In this document: positions 14,774 to 32,096 of the stretch, piece by piece
How positions within the stretch are numbered: position 1 is the first letter of the stretch
How the letters are laid out: each line of letters opens with the position of its first letter
Assembly: GCA_963789955.1 (NCBI GenBank)
Contig: CAWBMV010000022.1
Span: 96,001 to 160,000 of the forward strand
Origin: an uncultured Candidatus Rokubacteria bacterium
GTDB taxonomy: Bacteria > Methylomirabilota > Methylomirabilia > Rokubacteriales > CSP1-6
Length of the DNA: 64,000 nucleotides
Direction: 5' to 3'
Position numbers and translations under genes: made by a program
The notes under the pieces: model-generated
Told to the model about the DNA's origin: nothing
Database searches by the model: none
What the model saw: only the letters and a program-made list of their open reading frames with translations

Positions 14774-14804
14774 GCGGCGCCGCCGCCGTAGTATCGGTGG
14801 CACC

Positions 14805-16047
14805 ATGAACTCGACCACCGTCTCCGTCAACGGTCGTGACTATCGCACCCCCCGCCGCCCGGTCGTCGTGGTCTGCATCGATGGGTCCGAGCCGGAATAC
14901 TTCGAGCGCGGGATCGCCGGCAACACCACGCCCGCCGTCGCGCGCTTCCGGAACGAGGGCGTGTACCGGGTGGCCCGATCCGTCGTGCCGAGCTTCACGA
15001 ATCCGAACAACCTGTCCATCGTCACCGGCGCGCTCGCCGGCGGTCCACGGGATCTCCGGCAACTATTTCTACGATCCCGCGACCGGCCAGGAAGTCATGA
15101 TGAACGACCCGAAGTTCTTGCGCTGCGAGACCCTGCTGGCGGCGTTGTCTCGCGCGGGAGCGCGCGTGGCGGTGGTCACCGCCAAGGACAAGCTTCGGCG
15201 CCTCCTCGGTCACGGAATGGACGGGATCTGCTTCTCCTCGGAGAAGGCCGACCAGACGACCAAGGGCGAGCACGGGATCGAGCGGGCCACCGACCTCGTC
15301 AGGATGCCGGTGCCCTCGGTCTACAGCGCAGAGCTGTCGGAGTACGTGCTGGCGGCCGGTCTCGAGCTGCTCGAACGCGAGCGCCCGGACGCGATGTATC
15401 TGTCGCTGACCGACTACGTGCAGCACAAGCACGCGCCGGGCGCGCCGGCCGCCACGGCGTTCTACGCGATGCTCGACCGCTACTTCGACGCGTTCGACCG
15501 CGCCGGCGCGGTGCTCGGGATCACCGCCGATCACGGGATGAACGCCAAGTCCAATTCGGACGGCACGCCGAGGGTGGTCTACCTGCGTCCGCTGCTCGAC
15601 GAGCTCGTCGGCGCCGGGCGCGCGCGCGTGATCTTGCCGATCACGGATCCCTACGTCGTGCATCACGGGGCGCTCGGCTCGTTCGCGACGATCTACTTCG
15701 ACGACGCGCCGCGGGCCAAGACGGTGGCGGCGCGCCTTGCCGCGACGCCCGGCATCGCCGAGGTCTACGACAACGCGACGGGCTGCGCGCGGTTCGAGCT
15801 CCCGCGCGATCGGGTCGGCGATCTGATCGTCATCGGCGACATCCACACGGTGCTCGGGAAATCGCCCGAGGAGCACGATCTCTCGTTGCTCGAGGAGCCG
15901 CTCCGCTCGCACGGCGGGGTGTCGGAGCAGATGGTGCCCTTCGTCATCAATCGACCGCTCGACGAGGCGAGCGCGCGGCGACTGGCCGGAGCCCGCGATC
16001 TGCGAAACTTCGACGTGTTCGACTACGTCCTCAACGGGGTGAGCTGA
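14805..16047 (+). CDS. phnA: Phosphonoacetate hydrolase (apparent frameshift near 15035)
   Basis: VVVC.DG, PSFTNPNNLSIVTG, HGISGNYF, TDYVQHK, DPYVVHHGALG, LRSHGG. Confidence 0.92.
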
Positions 16048-16089
16048 TCGGGCGGTGGCGCTCGGCGGGCCTCCGAGCGCGTTCGGCGG

Positions 16090-16281
16090 CTACTCGGTTC
16101 GCTGCGCGCGCGCTTCCTCGGCGGCCTTGATCTCGTCGGCGAACATCGCGGTCGTCAGCGGGCAGGGAGGCTTGTTCTCGTCGACGTACTGGCAATCGGT
16201 CTGGTTGCACTGCACGAAGTAGCCTTGAGGCCGTCCGAATCCGCCCGGCCGACGCAGTCGGATCTCAACACTCTCGGACAC
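16090..16281 (-). CDS. Small Cys-containing hypothetical protein
   Basis: C-x4-C-x9-C pattern, GC3-rich codons; start uncertain. Confidence 0.6.
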   Translation of the reverse strand: MSESVEIRLRRPGGFGRPQGYFVQCNQTDCQYVDENKPPCPLTTAMFADEIKAAEEARAQRTE

Positions 16282-16545
16282 GACGCCACACCAGTACTCG
16301 CGCGCTCGGCTTCGGCTCACGTCATCTCCTCAGCGCGACCAGACTTGCGTCGCACTCGATTACTAGGGGGCTCGTTCACCATACGACAGGAGCCGCGTCC
16401 ACACAACATGTCCGTGAGTTTTTCCTCTGCGCCGGCCGCGAATTGTGTCGAACGAAGGTCGCGATTCAGCTATAAAGGACGTGACTCGCAAGCGTACCGA
16501 TATCGCCCAAATAACCGCGACGTTCGAAGAGGAGGGTGCGTCGTT

Positions 16546-17487
16546 TTGCTTCGGGTTCTGACCGGCCGGCTCGGCTCCGCCGCGGCCCCGCTGGCCGTAG
16601 CGATCGCGATGGTGGCGTTCAGTGGTTGCGGCAGCGTATCGAGCGCGGTCAAGCCCGAGTCGTCGCTCCTCGCCGGTGCGCAGCCTCCGAGCGCGAGCAC
16701 CCCGCCGTCCGACTCCGGCCCACTATCGAGCGCTTCCAGCGAGCCAGTCCCGACAGTCGCCGAATCGCCGGCCATCGAGCCGGGCGCGGGCGAGAACGGA
16801 GACGGCGCGGCCGAGGTCAAGGTCGCTCAGGCGGAGACGCCTCAAGACAAGGGCCAGCCCGGGGAGCCGCCGGCCGATGACGAGGACTACGATCCCTGGG
16901 AGAAGTTCAACGAGAAGATGTTCGAGTTCAACCGGCAGGCCGATCGGTTCGTGCTGAAGCCGGTCGCGAAGGTCTACAGCGTGATTCTGCCCGAGCCGTT
17001 CGAGGTGATGATCGGCAACGGCTTCGACAACATCGGCCTTCGTGCCGCGGATGGTCAACAGCCTGCTCCAGGGGAAGTTCGTCGGCGCCAGCCGCGAGGT
17101 GTCCCGCTTTCTGATCAACAGCACGCTCGGCATCGGTGGGCTGTTCGACGCGGCGAAGTACTACGGGATCGAGAAGAGCCGCGAGGACTTCGGGCAGACG
17201 CTCGGGTTCTGGGGGGTGACCCCGGGCCCGTACCTCATCGTGCCCTTCCTGGAGCCGATGACGGTTCGTGACGGGATCGGCCGGGGCGTGGATAGCTTGA
17301 TGAATCCGTTCTCGTACTTCACTTTCCGTTCATCTGGACCGGCGTTGCCCTCAAGCTCGGCGAGATCGTCAACGATCGTGCCTTGAATCTCGACTTGTTC
17401 CAGGGATTCGAGGAGAGCGTGGTCGACCTGTACAGCGCCGTCCGACACGGCTATCTCCGACGTCGGGAGCAGCTGATCAAGGAGTAA
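16546..17487 (+). CDS. MlaA/VacJ-family lipoprotein (apparent frameshifts near 17038 and 17322)
   Basis: Lipobox FSGC; DPWEKFN.KMF.FN, RFLINSTLGIGGLFD, EDFGQTLG.WG..PGPY. Confidence 0.85.
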
Positions 17488-17488
17488 C

Positions 17489-18424
17489 GTGAGGGGGCGC
17501 ATCATCCTCCTCGGGGTCCTCACCGCGGCCGCCGCGTTCGGCTGCCTCGTCTGGCTCGCCCTGATTCCGGGCGCTCGGCCCGCTCGTGCCAGCGCCGACA
17601 GCGGTGACGTCAGGGCAGGTCGAGAGGTGTACGTGCGCTACTGCGCGACCTGCCACGGCGATGCCGGACGTGGCGACGGCGCATCGGCCGCCTCGTTCGC
17701 CACCAAGCCCGCTGACCTGACCGACGGCCGTCTGATGAACGGACTCCCCGACGAGTTTTTGTACAACGTCATCATGCATGGCGGACCGGCCGAGGGACTG
17801 TCGCCGGGCATGCCGCCGCTGTCCGCATACTTGAGCGACGCCGAAACGCGCCGGGTGATCCAGTACCTTCGCACGATCGCCTCGCCGTCCTTCCGCGCCG
17901 AGATGGCGAAGCCGCTCGTGTCGCCCCCGCGCGCGCCGCGACAGCCGATCTTCTTCAATCACGTGATTCACGCCGGCTCCTTCCAGATCCCGTGCCAGTA
18001 CTGCCACGCCGACGCCCGCCGATCGGAGTACGCAGGGCTTCCGTCGGTCGAGCGCTGCCTGGGTTGCCACAAGATCATCGGCGCCCAGGACAATCCCGAG
18101 ATCGCGAAGATCCACGACTACGCCAAGCGCGGCCAGCCGATCCCCTGGGTGCGGATCTTCAAGCTCCCGGAGTTCACCTTCTTCCCGCATCGAGCTCACG
18201 TGCGCTTCGGGCTCGAGTGTCAGACGTGCCACGGCCCGATCGAGCGAATGCGGGTGGTCGGCGCGGACACGGGACCGAAGCTGAGTGACGACCTGGTCCG
18301 GCTCGTCGGCTTCCGCCCGCCTCCCAGAGCCTTGACGATGGGGTGGTGCGTCGAGTGCCATCGTGAGCAGAACGCGACACGAGGAAGCAAGGCACCTCTC
18401 GACTGCGTCACCTGCCATCACTGA
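17489..18424 (+). CDS. Hexaheme cytochrome c (monoheme domain plus ActA-like pentaheme domain)
   Basis: CATCH, CQYCH, CLGCH, CQTCH, CVECH, CVTCH; QPI.F.H..HAG, I.W.RI..LP.F.FF.H..HV, MGWC. Confidence 0.9.
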   Translation: MRGRIILLGVLTAAAAFGCLVWLALIPGARPARASADSGDVRAGREVYVRYCATCHGDAGRGDGASAASFATKPADLTDGRLMNGLPDEFLYNVIMHGGPAEGLSPGMPPLSAYLSDAETRRVIQYLRTIASPSFRAEMAKPLVSPPRAPRQPIFFNHVIHAGSFQIPCQYCHADARRSEYAGLPSVERCLGCHKIIGAQDNPEIAKIHDYAKRGQPIPWVRIFKLPEFTFFPHRAHVRFGLECQTCHGPIERMRVVGADTGPKLSDDLVRLVGFRPPPRALTMGWCVECHREQNATRGSKAPLDCVTCHH

Positions 18425-18579
18425 TCGGTTCTCGCTCCGAAATTATCCGGAAAGGCGCATCACGAAGTACCCGCTCGGACTACCCCGTCCATAGGGGCAT
18501 GGCGCTTTCTGGCTACCGCGAATAGGACCGTGGGCGGTGGTAAGAAATTGGGCGAGGGCTGCTCTAGTTCCGCTATTTT

Positions 18580-19935
18580 ATGACTATGGACAATATCCTG
18601 GTCGTCGACGACGAACGGAACATCCGCACGCTCTGTTCGCGGGTGTTGGCCGGGGACCAGATCGAAGTCCACGGGGTTGGTACCGGCAAAGAGGGGCTCC
18701 AGACGGCCGACGAGGTGAGCCCCGACCTGGTTCTCCTCGATCTCCGCCTTCCGGACATGGACGGCATCGACGTTCTTCGCGCCCTCAAGGGCCGCCACCC
18801 CGAGACCGCGGTCATCATCATCACGGGCTTCGGGCAGATCCAGAGCGCGGTCGAGGCGATGAAGGCCGGCGCCACCGACTATCTCGAGAAGCCGTTCGAG
18901 CACCTCGACAAGCTCAAGCTCGCGGTCGCGCGCTCGCTCGAGGAGGTGCGCGCCCGCCGCGAGATCCAGCGTCTTCATCGCCTGCAGGAGAAGGAATACC
19001 GAGTCGATCAGCTCATCGGCGAGTCGGAGGGAACGCGCCGGCTCCGCGAGCTCATCGGTAAGCTCGCGCGGAGCGAGGCGGCGACGATCCTGATCCACGG
19101 CGAGAGCGGAACCGGCAAGGAGCTCGTCGCGCGCGGCCTGCACTACGAGAGCGCGCGGCGCGACTCGCCCTTCATGGAGGTCAACTGCGCGGCCATCACC
19201 GAGACCCTGTTCGAGAGCGAGCTGTTCGGGCACGAGAAGGGGGCCTTCACTGACGCCAAGGCCGCGAAGAAGGGCCTGATGGAGCTGGCCGACCGCGGCA
19301 CGCTGTTCCTCGACGAGGTGAGCGAGATGTCGCTCAACAGCCAGGCGAAGTTCCTCCGGGTCCTCCAGGAACGCGTCCTCAGGCGAGTGGGCGGGACGCG
19401 GGACATCAAGGTAGATCTGAGAATCATCGCCGCGACCAACCGGCCGCTCGAGATGCGCGTGAAGGACGGACTGTTCCGCGAGGACCTCTTCTATCGGCTC
19501 AACGTGATTCCGATTCACATCCCTCCGCTGCGCGAGCGCCGCGACGACATCATGCCGCTGGCTCGACATTTCGTCATGGACGCGAACACGCGCTTCCACA
19601 AATCCATCAAGGGGTTCACGCCGGACGCGGAGCGGCTGATGGTGGGCTACCAGTGGCCGGGCAACGTCCGCGAGGTCCGGAATCTGATCGAGCGTCTCGT
19701 GATCCTGGGCAGCTCCGAGCTCATCGAGCCGCAGCACCTGCCGGTGCAGTTCGCGACCCAGATCCGTCAGGCCGTCGTTCCGGAAGCGTCGACGGACGAG
19801 CCGCGAACGTTGGCCGAAGTGGAGCGCGCCTACATCGCGCAGATCATGCAGCGCGTGGAATCGAACAAGAGCAAGGCCGCCAAGATTCTCGGCATCTCGC
19901 GCCAGACGCTTCGCAAGAAGCTCATGGAAGTGTGA
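18580..19935 (+). CDS. Sigma54-dependent response regulator (NtrC family)
   Basis: REC; GESGTGKE, ESELFGHEKGAFTDA, FREDLFYRLNV, WPGNVRE; Fis-type HTH. Confidence 0.95.
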   Translation: MTMDNILVVDDERNIRTLCSRVLAGDQIEVHGVGTGKEGLQTADEVSPDLVLLDLRLPDMDGIDVLRALKGRHPETAVIIITGFGQIQSAVEAMKAGATDYLEKPFEHLDKLKLAVARSLEEVRARREIQRLHRLQEKEYRVDQLIGESEGTRRLRELIGKLARSEAATILIHGESGTGKELVARGLHYESARRDSPFMEVNCAAITETLFESELFGHEKGAFTDAKAAKKGLMELADRGTLFLDEVSEMSLNSQAKFLRVLQERVLRRVGGTRDIKVDLRIIAATNRPLEMRVKDGLFREDLFYRLNVIPIHIPPLRERRDDIMPLARHFVMDANTRFHKSIKGFTPDAERLMVGYQWPGNVREVRNLIERLVILGSSELIEPQHLPVQFATQIRQAVVPEASTDEPRTLAEVERAYIAQIMQRVESNKSKAAKILGISRQTLRKKLMEV

Positions 19936-20142
19936 CGGGTCGATCAGTCCATCGCCACTGGTGAGTTCGGGGCCACTCCGGACTCAGAGGATCCGGATAA
20001 GCGCAAGTAGTTGAAATTAAATTCTTTCCGGAATGGGGGTCGCCCGGCTCTGTGAAATCTTGGCAACTAATCAGCCATTGAAGGGCGACGCCGGAAATCC
20101 CAAATTGATTGACTTTATGACTACTTACAAGCGAGCGGACCC

Positions 20143-20159
20143 TTGGTCTCCCATTTGCT
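20143..20159 (+). promoter_or_regulatory. Putative sigma54 promoter
   Basis: TTGGTCTCCCATTTGCT (GG-N10-GC) at the end of an AT-rich intergenic region. Confidence 0.65.
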
Positions 20160-20205
20160 ACTTCTTCGTGCGAGCCTCGCACGAAAACGGCCAGGGGAGA
20201 GTGGA

Positions 20206-21666
20206 ATGAGACCGACGTTCAGGAAGCTGGAAGTCAAGGACATCGGCAACTTGGAGCGGCTGGTCGCCGACAACATCGACGGCGTCGAGCCGGGCCTGAA
20301 GGTCGTTGATTCGCGGCTGCTCCTCGGTCAGGCCGCGATCGACCTCGTGGGTCTCGACTCCAAAGACTCCCTCGTGCTGATCGCCCTCGACTTCAGCGCC
20401 GACGACGGACTCCTGCTCCGCGTGATGGACGCCTACTCCTGGTGTCTCGAGTACCCGGACACGCTCCGCCGTCTCTACCCGATGGCGCAGGCAACGTCCC
20501 GGCCGCCGCGCATTCTGTTCGTCGTCGAGAAGATGACGGATGCGTTCCTCCGCCGGGTCAAGCAGCTCAGCTTCCTCGAGATCGATTGCTTCGAGTTCCG
20601 CTACCTGGAAGTCAACGGCGCCTCCGTCGTCTATTTCGATCTCGTCGAGCGCCTGCGCAAGTCGGTCGTGGATGCGCCGAGCGAGGTCGCGGCACCCGCG
20701 GCCGCCCGGCCGGCCCCGGTCGTCCCGTCTCCGGTCGAGCCGCGCGTTGAACATCGAGTCGAGCCGCGGTCGAGCCGCGAATCGAACAGCGAATCGAGCC
20801 GCGCGTGGAGTCTCCAGTCGAGCCGGCGAAGCCCGCTCTCGCGTGGGCGACGCGCGTGGAGTCGCGCGAGCCGGTGAGCGAGCCCAAGCGGGTCGAGCCG
20901 CTCAAGGCCGTCGTCGCGGAGCCGATTCGCTTCGAGCCCACCGCGGTCGTCGCCGCCGAGCCCGAGCCCGTTGCGCCGGTCGTCGCGGTCCCGAGCGCGC
21001 CCGCGCCGGTGGAGCCGGAGCCGAGCGTGGTCGCCGAGGTTCAGGTTCCGCCGAGCGTGAACCTACGTCCGCGACGCGGCGGTCGTGCCGCCCGTACCCG
21101 CGAGCGTACCGCCGGCGTCCGTGATCGTCACGGTGGCGCCCGAGCCGATCGTGACGATGCCGGTCGAGCCCGCGCTCGCGCTCGAGGCCATCGAGACGAC
21201 GTCCACGCGCGCTCACACGAATGGACATGTCGCCGAGCCCGACGCGGTCGTCGCGCCGGTCATCGAGACTGCCCTGCGCGTCACGGCCCCGGTTGACGAG
21301 CCGATTATCGTCGCGCCCGCGGCTCCTGTCCCGGCAGCGCCAGAGGCGGCTCCCGCTTTCGTGGTGCCGGTGGAACCCGTTCCGGCCCCCGTGCAGGCTC
21401 CGCCGGTCTGGGCCAAGCCCGGATCGCAACCGAATGGGACCAAGCCTCACTTCTTCGCGCACGCGACGAAGGGCACCACTCCGGTCGAAGCTCCGGCCAT
21501 GGTCGCCGCGGTGGCGGCGCCTGCTGAGCCGGCCACGCCACCAGCCGCGAGCAAGGTTGGACTCGAAGTCGACGACCGTCCGGAGCTCGAATCGCTGAGC
21601 TTCCCGAAGGACGGGCTGTCTCGCCAGTGGCTAGAGTTCCTCAGTCAGCTCGGCGCGACAAAGTAA
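20206..21666 (+). CDS. Hypothetical protein: NucS-like N-terminal domain, long Pro/Ala/Val/Glu linker, short C-terminal helix (apparent frameshifts near 20770 and 21065)
   Basis: ORFs 20143, 20805 and 21085 join into one compositionally continuous protein. Confidence 0.7.
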
Positions 21667-21677
21667 CAGGAGTCCTT

Positions 21678-23240
21678 GTGACGACCACGACGGACAGCGA
21701 GACTCAGGTTCCCGGCGGCGCGCCGGCTGAGCGGCTCCGCGTTCTGCTGGTCGACGACAACGCGTCCGTGCTCCGGTTCCTGGCGTCCGCGTTCTCGTCG
21801 AACGGATGTCAGGTCACGACGGCGGGGACTGCCGAGCAAGCCCTCGAGCAGCTGAGCGACGATCCCTACGACCTCGTGGTGTCCGACATCAAGATGCCGG
21901 GCCTGAGCGGCCTCGACCTGCTCCGCGCGGTCAAGGGCAAGCAGCCCGGAACGCCGGTGGTGCTGATCACGGGCGTGCCCTCGGTCAACTCGGCCGTCTT
22001 CGGACTGCGGCACGGCGCCTACGACTATCTGCCCAAGCCCTTCTCGGTCACCGAGGTGAAGGAGCTCATCCGTCGTCTCCGGCGCGACCGGGCCGACGGC
22101 AACGGCAACGTCAACTACCCGGCCGGGCTCACCGAAGAGCTGGCTAGGCGCCAGGGCGGCGTCGAGGCGATCTCGCGTATCGGTGAGGTGGCCCTGCAGG
22201 GTCTCGAGCCGAGCGTGTTCGCCGAGAAGGTGGTCGAGTACACGATGCAGAGCCTTCGCTGCGACGGCGCGCTCATGCTGCTCCGCGATCAGGGCGGGCA
22301 GTTCAACGCGAGCCGCAAGGGCGAGCCGTCGATGGTCGGCCAAATCCTGGCGCTCCTCCAGGCATCGTTCGGCGACGTGGTCAAGACCGGCGGCCGCGAG
22401 ACGCTCGTGCTCACCAAGCGCGAGCACGGCTTCGAGGCGCTCGCCGCGATGGTCCCGGGCGTGGGCGACGCGATGGGCATTCTCTGCGTCGGCCGCGCCG
22501 CCGAGCACGGCGGCTTTCTGCCTGACGAGAAGGCGCTCCTGCTCGGGTACGCGCAGACCACGGCGGTCGCGCTCCAGAAGCTGCTGCTGCGCGAGAACCT
22601 CGAAAAGAACCTGATCGATACGATCTCGTCCTTCGTCATCGCGCTCGAGTCGAAGGATCCGTACCTCAAGGGCCACTCAGCACGCGTATCCCTGTACTCG
22701 GGTGAGCTCGCGACGGTCATGGGTGTCCCGTCGGCGGATGTGGTCATGATGAGCCGGGCCGGCATGCTGCACGACCTCGGCAAGCTCGTGATCATGGACA
22801 ATATTCTCCGCAAGCCCCGGCAGCTTACCGAAGAAGAGTTCGAGCTGATCCGTACCCATCCGGTCGTGGGCGACAAGATCCTGAAGCCGCTCCGGTTCCT
22901 CGCCTGCGAGGCGAAGGCGGTGCGTCATCACCACGAGCGGTACGACGGCAAGGGCTATCCGGACGGCCTCAAGGGCGATGACATCCCGCTCATCGCGCGG
23001 GTCGTGACGGTTGCTGACGCCTTCGATGCGATGACGTCGGACCGCCCCTATCGGAGCAAGCGGCCGCTGGCGACAGCGCTGGAGGAGATCGGCAGCGGCG
23101 CCGGCACCCAGTTCGACCCGACGGCCGCCGACGCGTTCCTGACGATCCCGCTGGCGCGCCTCGAGCAGATCAGCCAACATCTCGATCTGCGGTCGCCGGC
23201 GATCGACTCGCCGATCTCGCCGCTGCTGGAGGTCCATTGA
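21678..23240 (+). CDS. Response regulator with GAF-like and HD-GYP phosphodiesterase domains
   Basis: REC; GHS.RV, HDLGK, HHERYDGKGYP, VADAFDAMTSDRPYR. Confidence 0.93.
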   Translation: MTTTTDSETQVPGGAPAERLRVLLVDDNASVLRFLASAFSSNGCQVTTAGTAEQALEQLSDDPYDLVVSDIKMPGLSGLDLLRAVKGKQPGTPVVLITGVPSVNSAVFGLRHGAYDYLPKPFSVTEVKELIRRLRRDRADGNGNVNYPAGLTEELARRQGGVEAISRIGEVALQGLEPSVFAEKVVEYTMQSLRCDGALMLLRDQGGQFNASRKGEPSMVGQILALLQASFGDVVKTGGRETLVLTKREHGFEALAAMVPGVGDAMGILCVGRAAEHGGFLPDEKALLLGYAQTTAVALQKLLLRENLEKNLIDTISSFVIALESKDPYLKGHSARVSLYSGELATVMGVPSADVVMMSRAGMLHDLGKLVIMDNILRKPRQLTEEEFELIRTHPVVGDKILKPLRFLACEAKAVRHHHERYDGKGYPDGLKGDDIPLIARVVTVADAFDAMTSDRPYRSKRPLATALEEIGSGAGTQFDPTAADAFLTIPLARLEQISQHLDLRSPAIDSPISPLLEVH

Positions 23241-23617
23241 CCGAGAGCTCCCGGCCGAAGATCCTCGTCGTCGACGACGCGGGCCCCGTCGTGATCCTGT
23301 GCGTCAACGTGCTGCAGGCGCTGGGATACGCGATCAGGGCCGCCAATCGTGGCGAGACGGCGCTCGACCTCTGCCGCAAGGAGCTGTTCGATCTCCTGGT
23401 GGTCGACTACAAGATGCCCGGGATGAACGGCTTCGAGGTGCTCGAGCAGGCCCGCCGGATTCGTCCCGGCATGGCGTGCATGCTGATGACGGCACACGGC
23501 ACCCCCGACATCATCAACGAGGCGACTCGCCTCGGCTTCGACTACATCCTGTTGAAGCCCTTCACGCCGTCGGAGCTCCGAGGGGCCGTCGACAAGGTCC
23601 TCGCGAGCAAAGCCTAG
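23237..23617 (+). CDS. Single-domain response regulator
   Basis: VVDD, VDYKMPGMNG, MTAHG, KPF. Confidence 0.9.
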   Translation: MTESSRPKILVVDDAGPVVILCVNVLQALGYAIRAANRGETALDLCRKELFDLLVVDYKMPGMNGFEVLEQARRIRPGMACMLMTAHGTPDIINEATRLGFDYILLKPFTPSELRGAVDKVLASKA

Positions 23618-23628
23618 GAGATCGCAGG

Positions 23629-24426
23629 GTGCCGCCGAGCGCGCCCGCGATCCTGAAGGCGGAAGCGGCCGGAACGACCATCATGAAAGCGGCGGCCGAT
23701 GCGCTGCGCGGGTGGTTGGATCGCATGCTCTCAGTCGGCTACGGCGTGGTCTACGACTACGTCTACCCGCGCTTCAGCCACTATCAGCGACTCCAGGCGG
23801 AGGTGCGAGATCTGGTGGAAGCCGCGGTTCCCGCGCGAGTCGAGCGGCGCGACGTGCGGATACTGGAAGTGGCGTGCGGGCCGGGAAACTTCACCTGCGC
23901 GCTGGCCGAGGCCGGCTTCGCCGTCACCGGGCTCGACGCGTACGCCGCGCTCGTCGACGTGGCGAAGGAGAAGCGGCGCGCTCGCCACTTGGCCAACCTG
24001 GCCTTCCGTCACGGCGAGCTCACGCGGGGCAACACGTTCCGCGACGGGACCTTCGATCAGGTCGTCAGCATCCACTCCTTGTACGTTCATCCGGCGCCGG
24101 ATCGGCTGTTGCGCGAGGCCTATCGCGTCCTCAAGCCAGGGGGCCACGCCGTGTTCGTGAATCACACGCGACAGATCGGCCGGTGGTCCACCGTGCGCGA
24201 GCTCGCCCGCCGGGATGGCCTGGGCGCGGCGCTCCACGGCCTTCTGTGGGTGCTGCCCAATTCGATCTTCGAGGCGGTACGCCGACGGGTCGGCCCTCAC
24301 TACTGGGACGAAGACACGTTTTCCACGCAGGTGCGCCGTTCAGGGTTCTCGATCCTGGCGATGCGACGGACGTTTCTCGGAGACGCGAGCCTCCTGGTGT
24401 GGGCGCGGAAGAACGGTGAGAACTGA
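23629..24426 (+). CDS. Class I SAM-dependent methyltransferase
   Basis: ILEVACGPG, FDQVVS.H.LY, RVLKPGG; start GTG 23629 or ATG 23683. Confidence 0.88.
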   Translation: MPPSAPAILKAEAAGTTIMKAAADALRGWLDRMLSVGYGVVYDYVYPRFSHYQRLQAEVRDLVEAAVPARVERRDVRILEVACGPGNFTCALAEAGFAVTGLDAYAALVDVAKEKRRARHLANLAFRHGELTRGNTFRDGTFDQVVSIHSLYVHPAPDRLLREAYRVLKPGGHAVFVNHTRQIGRWSTVRELARRDGLGAALHGLLWVLPNSIFEAVRRRVGPHYWDEDTFSTQVRRSGFSILAMRRTFLGDASLLVWARKNGEN

Positions 24427-25224
24427 ATGAATCGCGGAGAGATCGCGCAACACCAATCGCAACCCCTCGCCGGCGTTTCGCCGGTCGCGGCCGCGGTGGG
24501 GGCGGGAGATCGTATGCCCTTTCGGGAAGCGCTCGAGCACATGATTGCCGTCACGTACGGCGTCACGTACGACGCCGTGGTGACGCATTTCCCGCCTTAC
24601 GAGGCGATGCTCGAGGAGATCGTCGCGTTCGTCGCCCGCTCGGCCCCGGACTCGACCGCGCCGCGCGCGACCCGCGTGCTGGACGTGGCGTGCGGGATCG
24701 GCAACGTGAGCCTCCGCCTGGCCAAAGAGGGCTACACCGTCGTCGGCATCGACGGCGTGAGACACCTGGTCGAGATCGCGCGCGAGAAGAGCTTCCCGCG
24801 CGGGACGAACCTGACCTTCCAGCACTTCGACATCGCGCGCGACAACGTGCCGGGCGCCGGAACATTCGACGTGCTGGTGAGCATGCACACGCTGTACTGG
24901 CATCCGAATCCGACGGCGCTCCTCGACTCGTGTCGGCGGGCGCTGAAGCCAGGCGGCCACGCGATCTTCCTGACCTACGGGCGCCCGGCCGGCCTCACGA
25001 CGTTCCACGACGTCCGCGCATCCCAGGGGCTTGGCGCGGCGGTCCGATCGCTGCGCTGGCTCCTGCCGACCATGGCGTTCGAGCTCTTCCGGGAGAGCGA
25101 GCACCGCTATCTGAGCGCGACCGAGTTTCATGAGACTCTCGGCCGCGCCGGCTTCGAAGTCCTCGAGGCCCGCCAGACGTTCCTGTCGGGTCTCAGCCGT
25201 CTCGCGTGGTGCCGCGCGAAGTGA
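24427..25224 (+). CDS. Class I SAM-dependent methyltransferase (paralog of the upstream gene)
   Basis: VLDVACGIG, FDVLVS.H.LY, RALKPGG. Confidence 0.88.
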   Translation: MNRGEIAQHQSQPLAGVSPVAAAVGAGDRMPFREALEHMIAVTYGVTYDAVVTHFPPYEAMLEEIVAFVARSAPDSTAPRATRVLDVACGIGNVSLRLAKEGYTVVGIDGVRHLVEIAREKSFPRGTNLTFQHFDIARDNVPGAGTFDVLVSMHTLYWHPNPTALLDSCRRALKPGGHAIFLTYGRPAGLTTFHDVRASQGLGAAVRSLRWLLPTMAFELFRESEHRYLSATEFHETLGRAGFEVLEARQTFLSGLSRLAWCRAK

Positions 25225-25310
25225 GCGCGACCGAGGTGATGGTGGCGCGGTGCATCGCTGGCGAAGCACCGGGGCTCGTCCCGGACTCCGTGACGACGAG
25301 GTGCCGTACG

Positions 25311-26009
25311 ATGTGGACGCGCGTGAGCTCGATGGTGCTGGTGACCGCGGTGATGCTGGTGGGACCGGCGCTCGGGACGAGCGAGGCCACGCATGGCGGC
25401 GACGGCTCTCGGCCGGACGCCGTTTTCTACGAGCTGACGGAGGAAGTGGTGCTCAGGCCGGACGGCTTCCGCGACGCAACCTCCGCGCTCGAGGGCAAGG
25501 CCCGGGAAGGATCGGCGCTCTGTCCGGATGGGCTCCAGGCGTACGCGAAGCAGTTCTTCCCCGAGGCCGTCGCCGTGAAGACGACCCCCCGCTGCCGGGT
25601 CGTCGCGATCGGTCGCAGCGTGATCGACGTGAACCCCGACAGTCCCGGATTCGGCAGCGGGGAGATCAGCGGGTACTTCTGGGTGGTGGTCAACAGCGTG
25701 GCGACGAATCTGACCGACGCGGCGGAGCTCGTCGTCATGAACGGTACCTTCACGGGCCAGATCCAGGTGGCGGATACGGACGGTCGGATCATCGAAATCC
25801 TGCCGGGGAGCGTGTTCACGCCGACCAGCGTGTTGCCCGGGTTCCCACGCCCGCACAATGCGCACGTTCACCGGCACGTTCCGGCTGCCCGTTCACCGTC
25901 CATCACGTCGCGGTGTACCAGAGCGATCGCGGGACGGTTGGTGCCGGTGCTGCCCGACGAGCGCGCACTCGGCGACCCGACCGTGCGCGTCGAGGTGGAC
26001 TTCGATTAA
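25311..26009 (+). CDS. Secreted hypothetical protein (paralog of 31331..32032); apparent compensating indels ~25855-25925
   Basis: Signal peptide; shares PDAV.YE.TE, LCP, TDA.E.V.M.GTF.G and ER.LG.P.VR.E..F with the paralog. Confidence 0.78.
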   Translation: MWTRVSSMVLVTAVMLVGPALGTSEATHGGDGSRPDAVFYELTEEVVLRPDGFRDATSALEGKAREGSALCPDGLQAYAKQFFPEAVAVKTTPRCRVVAIGRSVIDVNPDSPGFGSGEISGYFWVVVNSVATNLTDAAELVVMNGTFTGQIQVADTDGRIIEILPGSVFTPTSVLPGFPRPHNAHVHRHVPAARSPSITSRCTRAIAGRLVPVLPDERALGDPTVRVEVDFD

Positions 26010-26030
26010 CGCACTGGCACTGCTAGGGGA

Positions 26031-26708
26031 ATGATCGCCGTGGAAGAGATGCCGTCCGTGTCACGGAGGCCCGACGCGAGAAGGGCGCGCCGCACGGGTG
26101 TGGTCTCGCGGGGCATGCGCGTCTATCTGCGGACCTTGCGCCCCGAGGACCTCGAGTATCTCTCGAACTGGGCGGAGGATCCGTTCCTCGAACGCATGGT
26201 CGGCAGCGAGTTCCTGAACACCTACAAGCACGTCTACGACAAGGACCCCTCGTTCTACGAGGCGTGCCTCATGGATTCGACCCAGATCGTGCTCGTCATC
26301 GAGGCCGAACCCGAATGGGCCACGCCGCTCGGGATCGCGCGCCTGTTCAACATTCATCTTCTGGAAGGCTACGCGTTCCTGGAGGTGATGCTGACCGACG
26401 CGAAGGCGATCCGTCGGGGATTTGGGGTGGAGGCCGGCAAGCTGATCTCGTACTATGGGGTCGACGTGCTGGGGCTTCGACGTATCGAGGCCAAAGTGTA
26501 CGAATACAATCGGCTGAGCGCCAACTCGCTACGGCGCAATGGCTTCCGGCAGGAGGGCATCCTCCGCAAGGCCGGATACCAGGATGGTCAGTGCTGGGAC
26601 ATGCTCGTCTTCGGCATCCTGGAACAGGAGATCGAACAGCAGCGCAAGAAGGACCGGGTGTATCTCCCTCTCGACGGTCCCGAGGGGGACGCGCGTGACG
26701 CTACATAA
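26031..26708 (+). CDS. GNAT N-acyltransferase (RimJ/RimL/SpeG-like)
   Basis: RRGFGVEA, LRRIEAKV..YN..S, GFRQEG.LR; start may be ATG 26115. Confidence 0.88.
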   Translation: MIAVEEMPSVSRRPDARRARRTGVVSRGMRVYLRTLRPEDLEYLSNWAEDPFLERMVGSEFLNTYKHVYDKDPSFYEACLMDSTQIVLVIEAEPEWATPLGIARLFNIHLLEGYAFLEVMLTDAKAIRRGFGVEAGKLISYYGVDVLGLRRIEAKVYEYNRLSANSLRRNGFRQEGILRKAGYQDGQCWDMLVFGILEQEIEQQRKKDRVYLPLDGPEGDARDAT

Positions 26709-28815
26709 CTTCCTCCCGCTCCTCGCGCTGATCCTCAACGTCTCCCTCGCGGGGATCACGCTCCTGCGCAACTCCGGGAGCCGGCTGAACCGTCTGTTCG
26801 CGTACTTCGTGGGCGGGATGGCCGTCTGGAACCTGGGCGTCTTCATGCTGCGCCGCGCGCCGGACGAGCCGACGGCCGTGTTCTGGGAGATCGTGATCCA
26901 CACGGGAGTCATCGCGCTCCCGGCCTTCTACTACCACTTCGTCCTGATCTTCCTCGAGAGCACGACGCGCCATCGAACCTCGCTGGTCGTGGCCTACACG
27001 CTCGCGATCGTGTTCAACATCATCAACGTCAGCGGCTCGCCGCTCTTCATGAGCGGCGTGAAGTCGACGTACTGGGGATGGGCGCCGGCGACCGGCCCGC
27101 TCTACACGCCGTTCTTCATCTACTTCAACTTCTTCCTGATCTACGGCTTGCTGCACCTGATCCGGGTCTACAAGGACATCGAATCGAGCTTCCGCCGAAA
27201 CCGCGCGACGCTCATCCTGCTCGGCACCGGCGTGAGCCTGATCGGCGGCGTCATCGACTTCGCCCGGTTCATCCTCACGCGGTTCGTGCCGGCGGCGGAC
27301 CTCGTGTACCCGATGGGGATCCCGGCGAACATGATCTTCGCGCTGATGCTCGGCACGTCGATCGTTCGCTACCGTCTCTTCGACGTCAACGTGCTGGTGA
27401 AGAAGGGCGCGATCTATCTGCTCCTGTGGGGCGTGCTGACCGGCACCCTGGTCACGGCGGAGTCGTACGCCGACTGGGATCAAGTCAACCCGCTCTGGGT
27501 CATCCTGCCGCTCGGCTTCATCTTGACGATGCTGGTGAGCCCGATCGGCCAGCGGCTCGAGGAGCGCATCGAGCGCCTGATGTTCAGCCGGCGCCGGGGT
27601 TGCTACGAGACCTTGCTGGACCTCAGCAAGCGGATGGGCTCGATCCTCGATTTCGGCCGCCTCATGGAGACGCTCGTGCACGGCCTCGTGCGCGGGGTCC
27701 CGCTGACCCACTGCGTCCTGATGATCTTCGACCCGCAGCGTAGCGCGTTCGTCGTCTACCGCGAGGACACGACGGTCGGTGAGGGCGCCGGCATCGCGTC
27801 GATCCGGGTCGACAGCCCGATCGTCCAGTGGCTGAACCAGAAGGGCCGCGTGCTGGTCAAGGAAGAGGCGAAGCTCAATCCCGAGATCGCCGCCTACTTC
27901 GAGACGGCCGAGAACGAGCTCGACGCGATCAAGGCGGCGCTGATCGTGCCGCTGAAGATCGAGGGCAAGCTCACCGGTATCCTGCTGGTCGGCGAGAAGC
28001 TCTCCGGCGACATCTTCGACGATCAAGAGCTCGAAGTGCTCGCGGTGCTCGCCAACCAGGTCGCGATCTCGCTGGAGAATGCGCGGCTCTACGAAGAGCT
28101 CTCGAACTCCAACGCCCAGCTCATGCAGGCCAGCCGGCTGAAGTCCCAGTTCCTGGCGAGCATGTCGCACGAGCTCCGGACCCCGCTGAACTCGATCATC
28201 GGGTTCTCGAAGGTGCTGCTCAACCGGCTCGACGGCGAGCTCACCGAGCGGCAGGAGACCTACATTCGCTCGGTCCACAACAGCGGCGCGCACCTCCTGC
28301 AGCTGATCAACGGCATTCTGGACTTCTCCCGTATCGAAGCGGGCAAGCTCGAGATGCTGTCCGAAGAGATCGACCTGCACGAGCTCGTCGACGAATGCAT
28401 CGAGTCGTCGATGCCGCTGGGCCGCGGCAAGCAGCTCAAGATCGAGAAGAACGTGCCGCTCGAGCTGCCGCCGCTGTCGGCCGACCGCACGAAGCTCAAG
28501 CAGATCCTGCTCAATCTGCTCTCGAACGCGATCAAGTTCACCGCGCAGGGTCGGGTGCTGGTCAGTGTCGTCGCCGAGCCGGACGCCGTCCGGCTCAGCG
28601 TGGCCGACACCGGCATCGGGATCCGCGAGGACGACCTGGCGCGGCTGTTCGAGCCGTTCCAGCAGCTCGACAACCCGGTCGCCCGCAGCGCCGGAGGCAC
28701 GGGCCTCGGGCTGGCGATCAGCAAGAAGTTCGTCGAGCTCCACGGCGGCCGCATCTGGGCGGAGAGCCGTGAGAACCAGGGCTCGACGTTCCATTTCACG
28801 CTCCCGTTGATCTGA
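26695..28815 (+). CDS. Membrane sensor histidine kinase (7TM-type N-terminus, GAF, HisKA, HATPase)
   Basis: Seven to nine hydrophobic helices, IVRYRLFD, GAF, MSHELRTPLN, NLLSNAIKF, GGTGLGL. Confidence 0.92.
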   Translation: MTLHNFLPLLALILNVSLAGITLLRNSGSRLNRLFAYFVGGMAVWNLGVFMLRRAPDEPTAVFWEIVIHTGVIALPAFYYHFVLIFLESTTRHRTSLVVAYTLAIVFNIINVSGSPLFMSGVKSTYWGWAPATGPLYTPFFIYFNFFLIYGLLHLIRVYKDIESSFRRNRATLILLGTGVSLIGGVIDFARFILTRFVPAADLVYPMGIPANMIFALMLGTSIVRYRLFDVNVLVKKGAIYLLLWGVLTGTLVTAESYADWDQVNPLWVILPLGFILTMLVSPIGQRLEERIERLMFSRRRGCYETLLDLSKRMGSILDFGRLMETLVHGLVRGVPLTHCVLMIFDPQRSAFVVYREDTTVGEGAGIASIRVDSPIVQWLNQKGRVLVKEEAKLNPEIAAYFETAENELDAIKAALIVPLKIEGKLTGILLVGEKLSGDIFDDQELEVLAVLANQVAISLENARLYEELSNSNAQLMQASRLKSQFLASMSHELRTPLNSIIGFSKVLLNRLDGELTERQETYIRSVHNSGAHLLQLINGILDFSRIEAGKLEMLSEEIDLHELVDECIESSMPLGRGKQLKIEKNVPLELPPLSADRTKLKQILLNLLSNAIKFTAQGRVLVSVVAEPDAVRLSVADTGIGIREDDLARLFEPFQQLDNPVARSAGGTGLGLAISKKFVELHGGRIWAESRENQGSTFHFTLPLI

Positions 28816-28831
28816 GGAGAAGAGGCGCCGA

Positions 28832-31039
28832 ATGCCGGCACGTCCAGCCCCAGCCGATCAGAAGGTGAAGATCCTCTACATCGAGGACAACCGCGAGAAC
28901 CGGATGCTCGTCCGGGCGGTGCTCGAGGCAGCGGGTTACCTGATCGTCGACGCCGAGGACGGCCTGGCCGGGATCGAGGCGGCCATCCGCGAGGAGCCGG
29001 CGCTGATCCTGCTCGACATCAACCTGCCGGGGGTCGACGGCTACGAGATCGTCGCGATCTTGAAGTCGTTCCCGAATCTGGCCTCGACGCCGGTGATCGC
29101 GGTCACGGCGTACGCGATGCAGGGCGATCGGCAGCGCACCCTGGTGGCCGGCTGCGACGGCTACATCCAGAAGCCCATCGACGTCGACGCGTTCCCCCGC
29201 CAGGTCGCCGAGTTCCTGGGGGGCAAGCGCGAACGAGTCGAGAGCCACGACGAAGGCGTCTACCTGCGCGAGCTGAACCAGCGGCTCGTCTACCGCCTGC
29301 TCAATCAGGTCGAGGAGCTCAAGCGGCTGAATCAGCACTTCGTGCGGCGCGCCTCACAGCTCGAGGATCTCCACCGCTCGATGGAAGACATCACCTCCGA
29401 GCTGGGCGTCGCCGCGATGCTCGAGAAGCTTCTGGGCGGCCTCGCCCGCGCGGTCGGCAGCACCAGCCTCAGCGTCGAGCTCAGCGAGCCCCCGGGCATT
29501 CACGTCTCCGTGCGCCATGACACCGGAGCTCAGCCGCGGGGCGTGCTGGCCGGCTCGGGCGGCCCGTCGGCGGACGACTGGACCGAAGTCGAGTGGCGGC
29601 TGCCCCTCACGGTGCGCGGTCGCCCCCTCGGGGTGATGATCGCCCGGCACGTGCTGCCTCCCGGCGCGAAGGCCGACGAGGAACAGCTCCTGAAGATCGT
29701 CGCCGACCAGGTGGCGATCGCCGTCGAGAACGCGCGGCTGTACGAAGGCGTCAAGCTCCTCCACGAGGAAACGCAGGAGCGCTTGCGCCACACGGAGACC
29801 TTGCTCGCGGTGAGCCAGGACGCCAGCGCGACCCTGGAGCTGAACGAGATCTTGCGCCGCACGACGCGCGCGATGGTCCGGGCGCTCGGCGCCGATACCG
29901 GCGGAGCGTGGCTCCAAAGCGAAGACGGAAGCCGCTTCGTGCCGATCGTCGGCTATCACGTGCCCAAGGAGCTCCTCGGGGCGGTCGAGAGCGCCACGCT
30001 CAAGGCGCTCGATCCCCGCGTGAGCGACTGGCGGCGGGTCGAGGGCCCGGTGTACTCCAGCAACAGCCAGGAGGACGCGCGCTTCGATCATCCGCTCGCG
30101 CGCATGATTCCGCACAAGTCGGTCCTCATCCAGCCGATGCGCTGGAAGGGCGAGAGCATCGGCGGATTCGCGCTCGCGTGGCTGAAGGATCATCACCGCT
30201 TCACCTCGGACGAGCTGCGGCTCGCCGAGGCGATCGCGCTCCAGGCGGCCGTCGCCAGCGAGAACTCGCGGCTCTACGAGGCCGAAAAGCAGCAGGTGGC
30301 CGAGCTCAAGCGGACGCAGGCCCAGCTGATCCAGTCGACGAAGCTCGCCGCGATCGGCGAGCTGGCCGCCAACATCGCGCACGAGATCAACAACCCGCTG
30401 ACCAGCGTGCTCGGCTTCGCGTCGTATCTCGCCGAGCAGGTGCCGCCCGGTCAGCCGTGGCGCGAGGAGCTCGATCTCATCCAGGAGGAAGCGGGGCGCG
30501 CCCGTGACATCGTGCGGGACCTGCTGCACTTCAGTCGCCAGCGTGAGTTCATCCCGCAGATCACCGATCTCAACACCGTGCTGGAGCAGACGCTGGCCAT
30601 GGTGCGTCGCCAGGGCGCGCTGGAGTCGATCACGCTCCGCGAGGAGTACGCGTCGGGCCTGGCTCCGGTCGAGGTCGACGTCCCGCGTATCAAGCAGGTG
30701 TTCCTGAATCTCATCAACAACGCGGTCTACGTGATGAAGGATCGCGGCGGCTCGCTCACGATCCGATCGTCGGCCAGCGGCGACATGGTGCAGGTCGAGG
30801 TGATCGATACCGGAACCGGCATCGCGCCGGACCACATGCATCGCATCTTCGAGCCGTTCTTCACGACCAAGCCGGAAGTCAGCGGCACGGGCCTGGGCCT
30901 CTCCGTGAGTCTCGGCATCGTGGAGAGCCACGGCGGCTCGATCGAAGTTCAGAGCGAGGTCGGCAAGGGCTCGACGTTCACGGTCAAGCTTCCGGCAAAG
31001 CCCGGCGCGACGATCGAAGAGCCGGATTCCGAGCTCTAG
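28832..31039 (+). CDS. Hybrid kinase REC-GAF-GAF-HisKA-HATPase
   Basis: DivK-like REC (AVTAYAM.GD...GCDGYI.KP); AHEINNPL; FEPFFTTK; GTGLGL. Confidence 0.92.
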   Translation: MPARPAPADQKVKILYIEDNRENRMLVRAVLEAAGYLIVDAEDGLAGIEAAIREEPALILLDINLPGVDGYEIVAILKSFPNLASTPVIAVTAYAMQGDRQRTLVAGCDGYIQKPIDVDAFPRQVAEFLGGKRERVESHDEGVYLRELNQRLVYRLLNQVEELKRLNQHFVRRASQLEDLHRSMEDITSELGVAAMLEKLLGGLARAVGSTSLSVELSEPPGIHVSVRHDTGAQPRGVLAGSGGPSADDWTEVEWRLPLTVRGRPLGVMIARHVLPPGAKADEEQLLKIVADQVAIAVENARLYEGVKLLHEETQERLRHTETLLAVSQDASATLELNEILRRTTRAMVRALGADTGGAWLQSEDGSRFVPIVGYHVPKELLGAVESATLKALDPRVSDWRRVEGPVYSSNSQEDARFDHPLARMIPHKSVLIQPMRWKGESIGGFALAWLKDHHRFTSDELRLAEAIALQAAVASENSRLYEAEKQQVAELKRTQAQLIQSTKLAAIGELAANIAHEINNPLTSVLGFASYLAEQVPPGQPWREELDLIQEEAGRARDIVRDLLHFSRQREFIPQITDLNTVLEQTLAMVRRQGALESITLREEYASGLAPVEVDVPRIKQVFLNLINNAVYVMKDRGGSLTIRSSASGDMVQVEVIDTGTGIAPDHMHRIFEPFFTTKPEVSGTGLGLSVSLGIVESHGGSIEVQSEVGKGSTFTVKLPAKPGATIEEPDSEL

Positions 31040-31172
31040 ACGCGAGCCGGTTCTCTCCGAGCCTCGTTAAGTTTCTATTCGCTAGCACGTTCCTCGGCAA
31101 TCGCTCGTAAGCTGTTGAATTCCATGAGAACTCACTGGTAAAAACGCGATTTCCGGATGAAAAACGACAATA

Positions 31173-31240
31173 AATCAATCACTTACGGATATTAAACTCC
31201 GGAAAGACCAGCACCGAAATCTAATCTAATCAGTAACTTA
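31173..31240 (+). promoter_or_regulatory. IHF-like binding sites
   Basis: AATCAATCACTTA (31173) matches WATCAANNNNTTR exactly; AATCAGTAACTTA (31228) has one mismatch. Confidence 0.55.
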
Positions 31241-31254
31241 CGAATCAAATCTCG

Positions 31255-31271
31255 TTGGTCCCCGCCTTGCA
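31255..31271 (+). promoter_or_regulatory. Putative sigma54 promoter
   Basis: TTGGTCCCCGCCTTGCA (GG-N10-GC), closely resembling the site at 20143. Confidence 0.68.
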
Positions 31272-31330
31272 CTACCTCCCGTTGGCTGTAGCTGTTCAAC
31301 CCTTAGATGCGGCGACGAGGAGAGAGAGCA

Positions 31331-32032
31331 ATGACTAGTATCTGTTGGAAGAGCGCAGTGACATGGAGCCTGCTCGGGCTGATGTTCCTGCTGTTCATCC
31401 TGATGGTCGGACCCCTTCCGGCGCTGGCTGGCCAGCCGGACGCGGTCCTCTACGAGGTCACCGAGGACATGTACCTCATGGATGGGGCGGGGAATCCAGT
31501 CAGCAGCGTCGCGCCGGGGGGCCGCCGGTCTGCGGTAGCCCAGCTTTCCGGTTGGGCGAAGGTCGGCACGCCGCTCTGCCCCTGGTTCGTGCTGTCGATC
31601 AACCCCAAGGCCAAGAAGTGCGCTGTGAACGCCACCGGCGCTGACAACCTCAGCCTGGACACGGGTAAGGGAACCCTCAGCGGGAAGTACGCAGTGGTCG
31701 TCCAGGGCGACAACAAGACGGACGCTCCGGAGTTCGTGATCATGACGGGGACGTTCGCTGGTGACGCTGACCTCTCATTGTCGCTGAGCGGTCAAGCGCC
31801 TCTCGGGTTCATCACCAACGGTATCGCGACGATCGACGGAAGCACGACGACGTTCAAGTTCACTGGGACGTTCCGGCTGCCCTTCGAGCTGGACGAGAGT
31901 GGTCGGCGATTCTGGCTCCGCAGGGTGTGGGACGACGCCTACTACTTGAGCGACAGCGGACACCCGCTGCGGGTCAAGGACAACGAGCGGTCGCTTGGCT
32001 TCCCGGCGGTGCGCCTCGAGATCGAGTTCTAG
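31331..32032 (+). CDS. Secreted hypothetical protein (paralog of 25311..26009)
   Basis: Signal peptide ending ALA; beta-rich, two Cys, C-terminal LEIEF. Confidence 0.82.
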   Translation: MTSICWKSAVTWSLLGLMFLLFILMVGPLPALAGQPDAVLYEVTEDMYLMDGAGNPVSSVAPGGRRSAVAQLSGWAKVGTPLCPWFVLSINPKAKKCAVNATGADNLSLDTGKGTLSGKYAVVVQGDNKTDAPEFVIMTGTFAGDADLSLSLSGQAPLGFITNGIATIDGSTTTFKFTGTFRLPFELDESGRRFWLRRVWDDAYYLSDSGHPLRVKDNERSLGFPAVRLEIEF

Positions 32033-32063
32033 TCTAGTTCCTGATCCCTCGTCGCCTCGCGCC

Positions 32064-32096
32064 CGGGCCCGAGCCGGAACTTCCGGCTCGGGCCCG
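32064..32096. terminator. Hairpin between convergent genes
   Basis: CGGGCCCGAGCCGGA-act-TCCGGCTCGGGCCCG. Confidence 0.7.

Follow-up and report, generated by a model that had tools for sequence, protein, structure and literature searches.

Does a compact run of signalling genes in an uncultured soil bacterium encode a circuit that responds to a small molecule of its own making? The question is raised by a 64,000-nucleotide stretch of DNA (hereafter the window) from a Candidatus Rokubacteria bacterium (GenBank assembly GCA_963789955.1, contig CAWBMV010000022.1, forward-strand positions 96,001 to 160,000), in which eleven genes between positions 18580 and 32032 form what an earlier note had read as a self-contained sigma-54 signalling island. 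Rokubacteria are abundant, uncultured soil organisms, and the literature searched (subscription journals and supplements excluded) contained no description of a signalling circuit in them. The island is a real, conserved gene block of uncultured soil Rokubacteria, and its constant core consists of two genes, a GCN5-related N-acetyltransferase (GNAT) and a seven-transmembrane (7TM) GAF sensor kinase.

Gene content, conservation and a two-gene core

All eleven genes lie on the + strand in the content and order that the earlier note had proposed, as confirmed by open reading frames, sequence and family scans. The block opens with an NtrC/AtoC-type sigma-54 activator (18580..19935, +) that combines receiver (REC), AAA and Fis-type helix-turn-helix domains and carries a GAFTDA loop (Pfam assignment; below all NCBIfam cut-offs). 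The operon that follows starts with a gene (20206..21666, +) for a NucS-C-like domain lacking the ExK motif, a Pro/Ala-rich linker and a conserved C-terminal helix (match to EndoMS, 5gke, at E 0.005). Next come a REC-HD-GYP phosphodiesterase with intact HD and GYP motifs (21678..23240, +) and a stand-alone receiver (23237..23617, +), both assigned by family scan, and two class I S-adenosylmethionine methyltransferases, of which the first (23683..24426, +) resembles UbiE, UbiG and phospholipid methyltransferases in family scans, with no cut-off passed, and the second (24427..25224, +) is its paralogue at ~40% identity. Secreted barrel protein 1, which has a signal peptide (25311..26009, +), precedes the GNAT (26031..26708, +), of RimJ/RimL-SpeG type according to the family scan and the nearest structures, and the GNAT gene overlaps the start of the HisKA_7TM-GAF histidine kinase (26695..28815, +; GTG start at 26695; family scan). 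A REC-GAF-GAF histidine kinase with an AtoS/ZraS-like transmitter (28832..31039, +; family scans) and a second secreted barrel protein (31331..32032, +) complete the block. The operon junctions range from a 14-base overlap to an 86-base gap, and catalytic motifs are legible in the HD-GYP domain, the four receivers and both kinases.

The genes also occur together elsewhere, one of the points on which the earlier note had staked its proposal. Among 20 stretches compared, ten show the complete order, two more lack an intact barrel 1, three from other genera keep the gene order with one barrel, and the remaining five are contig ends, lone barrels or a second module. In a comparison of ten islands the activator has a median identity of 95%. 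A scan of 185,579 species genomes that started from the GNAT yielded 98 confirmed relatives, the best 80 of which underlie the counts given here; by title, 73 of the carriers of these 80 listed loci are Rokubacteria or Methylomirabilota and one is Binatia. In a sample of the phylum, the GNAT was present in 79/201 genomes and the barrel in 61/201, while neither was found in 57 genomes of eight other families. Plasmid records held only distant 7TM kinases, in Manganitrophus, with no GNAT adjoining the one inspected, and the GC profile shows no step at the block that would mark a recent acquisition.

What stays constant in these loci is the pairing of acetyltransferase and sensor. The GNAT gene leads directly into the 7TM kinase in 72/80 loci, nearly always with overlapping ends and down to ~44% identity; the eight exceptions comprise one contig end, two loci with a rearranged kinase and five without a local kinase. 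A STAS domain is fused to the GNAT in 15/80 loci and encoded by a separate gene just upstream in nine more. When only non-STAS loci with a complete upstream flank of 8 kb are counted, 44 in all (loci with shorter flanks were excluded; one of these, L146, lacks both a methyltransferase and the 7TM kinase), at least one methyltransferase is present in 43 and both in 34, the barrel in 34, the REC-kinase in 40, and the activator, NucS-like and HD-GYP genes in 35. The STAS-GNAT/7TM loci have a methyltransferase in 0/15 cases, a barrel in 2/15 and an activator in 2/15. From these tallies, the core is the GNAT and the sensor kinase, and the methyltransferases, to which the earlier note had given a part in making or modifying the signal, belong to the main island only. 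The same genome holds one STAS-GNAT fusion coupled to a 7TM-GAF kinase on another contig (C6, L050:9912-12990), again lacking methyltransferase and barrel; its STAS motif reads DV(A/V)G at what we take to be the usual site of the phosphorylated serine.

The assembly itself calls for some care. Compensating frameshifts interrupt the NucS-like gene and, over a short interval near 25850-25930, barrel 1; since relatives lack them and further genes of this assembly are broken in like manner, sequencing errors are their most likely cause. In 6/6 relatives checked the NucS-like gene is intact, encoding 316-549 aa. Upstream, genes that we take from their sequence to be phosphonoacetate-hydrolase-like and MlaA-like (window 14667-17523) also appear frameshifted, which fits assembly indel errors. 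A cytochrome c fused to a multihaem c domain lies directly 5' of the activator (window 17489-18424), a linkage seen in the genus only. The number of GAF domains in the soluble REC-kinase ranges from one to several among relatives (L064, L066). Contigs from soil and sediment RNA libraries cover the block (one of them 20293-23879) as well as its flanks, and such contigs cannot show transcription.

Promoters, a shared palindrome and the possible reach of the regulon

How might these genes be controlled together? A sigma-54 -24/-12 site precedes the operon (20143..20159, +) and another precedes barrel 2 (31255..31271, +). The former is kept upstream in 17/17 relatives and the latter in 13/13, and the operon site persists in 13/13 held-out islands; rpoN is present in the genome. 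The pattern TGGYH-N6-TTGCW has two matches only in the 64-kb window, at 20144 and 31256, a count that is not beyond chance (8/100 shuffles reach 2), so that the case for the sites is made by their position and conservation. The earlier note had called the two promoters near-identical; the sites are conserved as it supposed, and they are similar rather than near-identical, agreeing at 12/17 letters. A sigma-54 drive of the activator's own gene is not supported: neither the pattern scan of the window nor the comparison of upstream regions places such a site before it. A sigma-70 scan returned nothing exceeding chance.

Comparison of upstream regions also revealed a 17-bp palindrome, approximately TGGYHAG-W3-YTDRCCA, and with it a design common to both promoters, in which two copies ~100 bp apart precede each sigma-54 site. 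The operon promoter carries a distal copy (19959..19975, score 9.8, with the same spacing in relatives) and a proximal copy (20061..20077, score 16.7), and the barrel-2 promoter likewise (31065..31081, score 13.9; 31165..31185, score 13.8). A single copy lies over the activator's own, non-sigma-54 promoter (18538..18554, score 16.3), where it is a candidate site of self-repression. Paired TCCGGA elements, conserved in the genus, lie near the motif copies of both sigma-54 promoters (window 19975-20045 and 31150-31206).

The motif stands before the activator in 17/17 relatives, a count that is circular because these formed the training set; the held-out tests are separate from it. A score of at least 12 was reached in 9/13 distant held-out islands and at 6/90 other sigma-54-like sites of the genome, compared with a mean of 0.7 and a maximum of 4 for 200 shuffled matrices (related islands are kin, hence not independent in the motif counts). 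In addition, an operon led by a GAF-GGDEF diguanylate cyclase carries the motif, at 14.3 or higher, beside a conserved sigma-54 site in 15/15 upstream regions including that of this genome (a sixteenth locus, without upstream DNA, was not counted); its first gene keeps the GGDEF motif, and in three other islands the activator gene and a gene of this cyclase family stand back to back and share the motif. The recognition helix of the activator is kept in 8/8 main-type islands inspected. The shared palindrome is thus a likely candidate enhancer for the island activator, a binder that we infer from co-conservation only. Several observations count against this assignment: the motif is loose, with 200 genome sites scoring at least 12; one proximal copy (31165..31185) overlaps a perfect match to what we take as the consensus of integration host factor (IHF); and one other of the 28 activators has a similar Fis-type helix. 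Against the wider reading of the island, only 4/25 further barrel copies have a sigma-54 site, the motif being found at all four and at five of the other 21.

Since the distal diguanylate-cyclase operon shares these sites, the island likely raises as well as lowers cyclic di-GMP (c-di-GMP), and the earlier note's view of a self-contained system that only lowers a cyclic dinucleotide has to be revised, also in light of the second STAS-GNAT/7TM module. Other loci of the genome carry similar arrangements. On contig C12 (L070:7084-10040) two GAF-GGDEF genes under a sigma-54 site lie back to back with a second NucS-like/linker gene, and the interval between holds the genome's strongest motif. A third GAF-GGDEF paralogue with a receiver (L084:5294-6936, C22:83293), ~30 kb from the island, is preceded by a motif scoring 17.2. 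On contig C37 (L073:4882-11723) a sigma-54 site and a motif precede another activator, a CofD-like gene, a deacetylase, a PrsK-like fragment and a PrsR above cut-off, and a copy scoring 14.6 lies just 5' of rpoN (L079:5363-5470, contig C17:107455). Three further loci (L074:3700-8878, L072:4170-8152 and L077:5466-7560) have sigma-54 sites with weaker motif support: a minor-pilin/PilY1 cluster, a chemosensory cluster and the gene of a PilB/MshE-type ATPase that has a c-di-GMP-binding domain. At the minor-pilin and chemosensory promoters these sites are kept in 9/9 and 16/16 cases and the motif reaches 12 in only 5/9 and 6/16, so we treat an extension of the regulon to pili and chemosensing as a lead and have not adopted it.

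A putative feedback circuit and its predicted ligand

We consider it fairly probable that the sigma-54 activator drives a feedback wiring of the island, since both kinases lie downstream of a sigma-54 site. Transmitters of the NtrB/AtoS type have NtrC-family receivers as partners, and when a membrane kinase lacks a receiver, its partner is usually the receiver encoded by the following gene. We infer that the 7TM kinase, itself lacking a receiver, would pass phosphate to the receiver of the REC-GAF-GAF kinase, and that this AtoS/ZraS-type soluble kinase would in turn hand it on to three targets, namely the activator, the HD-GYP protein and the stand-alone receiver. The pairing of kinase and activator foreseen in the earlier note is consistent with their families, the kinase being AtoS/ZraS-like and the activator AtoC-like. 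Once bound at its paired 17-bp sites, the activator would raise the kinases, the enzymes and the HD-GYP protein in a positive feedback, together with the exported barrel and the distal diguanylate-cyclase operon, while the copy over its own promoter would let it damp its own gene and so cap the loop. The output would likely be a c-di-GMP-linked lifestyle switch.

At the input, a small lipophilic molecule would be made or modified by the GNAT, in some loci tailored further by the methyltransferases, which are dispensable in this scheme; this molecule the 7TM kinase is predicted to read and the barrel to bind, carry or destroy outside the membrane. That the sensor reads such a self-made or self-modified ligand is quite possible, if short of probable, and is suggested by gene coupling, conserved polar sensor residues and the barrel fold. 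In the 7TM sensor, 26 polar or aromatic residues are kept in at least 90% of 55 domains. The GNAT keeps its CoA-binding motifs and has a conserved tail beyond the GNAT core (row L061, which contains a stop codon, was dropped from the alignment), and the methyltransferases form one paralogous family, UbiE/UbiG-like and akin to quinone, phospholipid and toxin methyltransferases.

The barrel was characterized by modelling. Barrel 2 has 575 homologues at 90% clustering (324 at 50%), none named among the matches listed; it had no match in Pfam, PDB-sequence or Atlas searches, and no sequence-profile match to the allene oxide cyclase (AOC) or dirigent families. Folding from the single sequence gave a predicted local distance difference test score (pLDDT) of 38, which is not usable, and folding with an 85-row alignment reached 93. 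The model, an eight-stranded barrel behind a signal peptide with Y-E-x-x-E in strand 1, matched best to a protein with a domain of unknown function (2q03; Z 11.3, root-mean-square deviation 3.8, 118 residues aligned), followed by the Diels-Alderase Cyc15 (Z 9.5), pyocyanin demethylase (Z 8.6), dirigent proteins (Z 8.1-8.4) and AOC (Z 7.7), with outer-membrane and designed barrels intermixed at Z 8.6-9.4; Foldseek against the PDB and viral models gave no match at E 0.001. An AOC/dirigent-type fold is therefore likely for the family, and its function is a prediction. Across the 85-row alignment the strand-1 Y, E and E do not vary, and this acidic motif may be akin to the catalytic glutamate motif of AOC. 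Of two distant proteins encoded at the equivalent position, one is related (probability 93%) and lacks the tyrosine; the other gave no clear call. The barrels end in VRLEIEF, with no PEP-CTERM tail at the aligned C-termini, and diverge much faster than the neighbouring genes.

A number of results weigh against a self-made ligand. The nearest solved relatives of the GNAT are RimJ/RimL and spermidine acetyltransferases (SpeG); it matches no acyl-homoserine lactone (AHL) or N-acyl amino acid synthase model (FeeM/ExoAT, LuxI/LuxM), its only matches being Acetyltransf_3/4, SpeG, PseH and ArsN1, and no acyl-carrier or acyl-CoA ligase gene lies within the block. Five loci have the GNAT but no 7TM kinase beside it, although all five genomes encode one elsewhere, and the STAS-GNAT loci do without methyltransferases and mostly without barrels. 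The GNAT and the sensor are highly conserved (median identities 88% and 92%) and the barrels diverge (63% and 47%), the reverse of what a synthase-receptor pair diversifying for private signals would show. An alternative, somewhat unlikely but not implausible, is that the same relay instead employs the GNAT as an intracellular partner of the kinase. It would acetylate a cytoplasmic amine, a receiver or the kinase itself, or else report acyl-CoA status, under STAS gating, with the sensor reading an outside cue and no autoinducer involved. Such a partnership would suit the RimJ/RimL-type fold, the conserved tail, the strict translational coupling of GNAT and kinase, the STAS domains fused to the GNAT or encoded just upstream, and the two-gene STAS-GNAT/kinase modules that have no other enzymes. 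Coupling, however, is also found between synthase and receptor genes, as in phcB-phcS (passages of PMC8578825 on that operon), and the retention of methyltransferases and barrel in the main island would be left unexplained. The luxM-luxN genes are, we assume, a coupled synthase-receptor pair of the same kind.

The enzymes could also be outputs of a regulon that answers an environmental cue, with GNAT, methyltransferases and barrels remodelling membrane lipids or detoxifying outside small molecules. The likeness of the methyltransferases to quinone, phospholipid and toxin enzymes, a barrel fold that includes a phenazine-destroying enzyme, and the hypervariability of the barrels and their scatter among unrelated contexts agree with this; yet an output enzyme need not stay coupled to a sensor gene, as the GNAT does in the great majority of loci, modules without a nearby activator included, and we regard the proposal as unlikely. 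It is very improbable that the block is an inherited neighbourhood of signalling genes with no shared function: all carriers are kin, and the pairwise-distance correlation of GNAT and sensor (0.91, equal for all three domain pairs) reflects descent only, but gene order, coupling and promoters are still kept at 40-60% identity and between families, and outlast duplications and new flanks.

Were the ligand indeed self-made, a bolder extension, doubtful at present, would be an undescribed form of cell-to-cell signalling in a dominant soil lineage, with the GNAT as a new class of signal synthase, HisKA_7TM as receptor, the methyltransferases and hypervariable barrels setting strain-specific dialects or quenching neighbours' signals, and the activator acting as a c-di-GMP/type IV pilus switch. 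Through the two-gene GNAT/7TM module, a ligand could be assigned to HisKA_7TM, a widespread sensor for which the passages of PMC5847659 on this domain name none. A self-made ligand would mean new quorum-sensing chemistry, and otherwise the module would represent a novel mode of kinase gating by a GNAT. The island is moreover a small, cloneable test set; its exported barrels form a new family of AOC/dirigent type, and its candidate enhancer serves to predict a regulon.

Comparison with known systems

Two of the proteins resemble known folds from a distance. The NucS-like protein shares with NucS/EndoMS a weak profile match (the NucS_C domain is detected in 8/23 family members) and the PD aspartate, whereas the ELK position of ExK aligns to hydrophobic residues, leaving the PD-(D/E)xK set incomplete; it has no N-terminal DNA-binding domain and carries a long Pro/Ala linker. 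The barrels have the eight-stranded architecture in common with AOC, dirigent, Diels-Alderase and PodA barrels (Z 7.7-11.3), from which they differ by ~80 extra C-terminal residues, a signal peptide and a confinement to Rokubacteria in the genomes searched.

As a circuit, the island invites comparison with several systems. In NCBIfam the soluble kinase and the activator come closest to AtoS-AtoC and ZraS-ZraR, both below cut-offs, and unlike AtoS and ZraS the island kinase is soluble, led by a receiver and placed behind a second, membrane kinase. The LuxM/LuxN-LuxU-LuxO system of Vibrio, like the island, sets an acyltransferase gene beside a multi-transmembrane kinase that feeds a sigma-54 activator; the island activator scores 379.7 against the LuxO model (cut-off 800), and the block contains no gene for a histidine phosphotransfer (Hpt) protein and no AHL-synthase match.

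PrsK/PrsR of the PEP-CTERM/exosortase systems are linked with N-acyl amino acid synthases in the consulted parts of PMC4897644 and PMC7293339, a likeness on which the earlier note had drawn. The island shares with them a multi-transmembrane GAF kinase, a sigma-54 activator, enhancer boxes, an exported target and a nearby acyltransferase. The likeness does not extend to family membership: the 7TM kinase matches PrsK weakly (E 2e-11 over residues 22-459) and scores 43.2 bits for its sensor part and below 130 at full length against TIGR02916 (cut-off 300), the activator reaches 387.6 bits against TIGR02915 (cut-off 502.6), and a true PrsR is encoded elsewhere in the genome (544.9 bits). The RimJ/RimL-type GNAT is unlike the N-acyl amino acid synthase found near PrsK/PrsR, and no exosortase gene lies in the block, the genome not having been searched for one.

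The closest parts list is that of Ralstonia phcBSRQ, which, in the passages of PMC8578825 devoted to it, unites a methyltransferase, a sensor kinase, a receiver-plus-kinase protein and a lone receiver in one operon with feedback, as does the island. The likeness is one of parts and does not establish homology to PhcB: the island has two methyltransferases plus a GNAT and a barrel, couples its sensor to the GNAT, and has a sigma-54 activator and an HD-GYP protein as output where Phc has the LysR regulator PhcA according to the same passages. Within the block, to which this check was confined, there is no LysR (PhcA) gene. The hallmarks of an NtrC-family regulon, in turn, are all present: an AAA+ domain with the GAFTDA loop variant, rpoN, -24/-12 sites and upstream palindromes, so that the RpoN-type promoters proposed in the earlier note are supported, with a candidate enhancer shared by both. 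In the literature searched the island is undescribed, and it represents sigma-54 two-component signalling with a specific though tentative claim to new signal chemistry.

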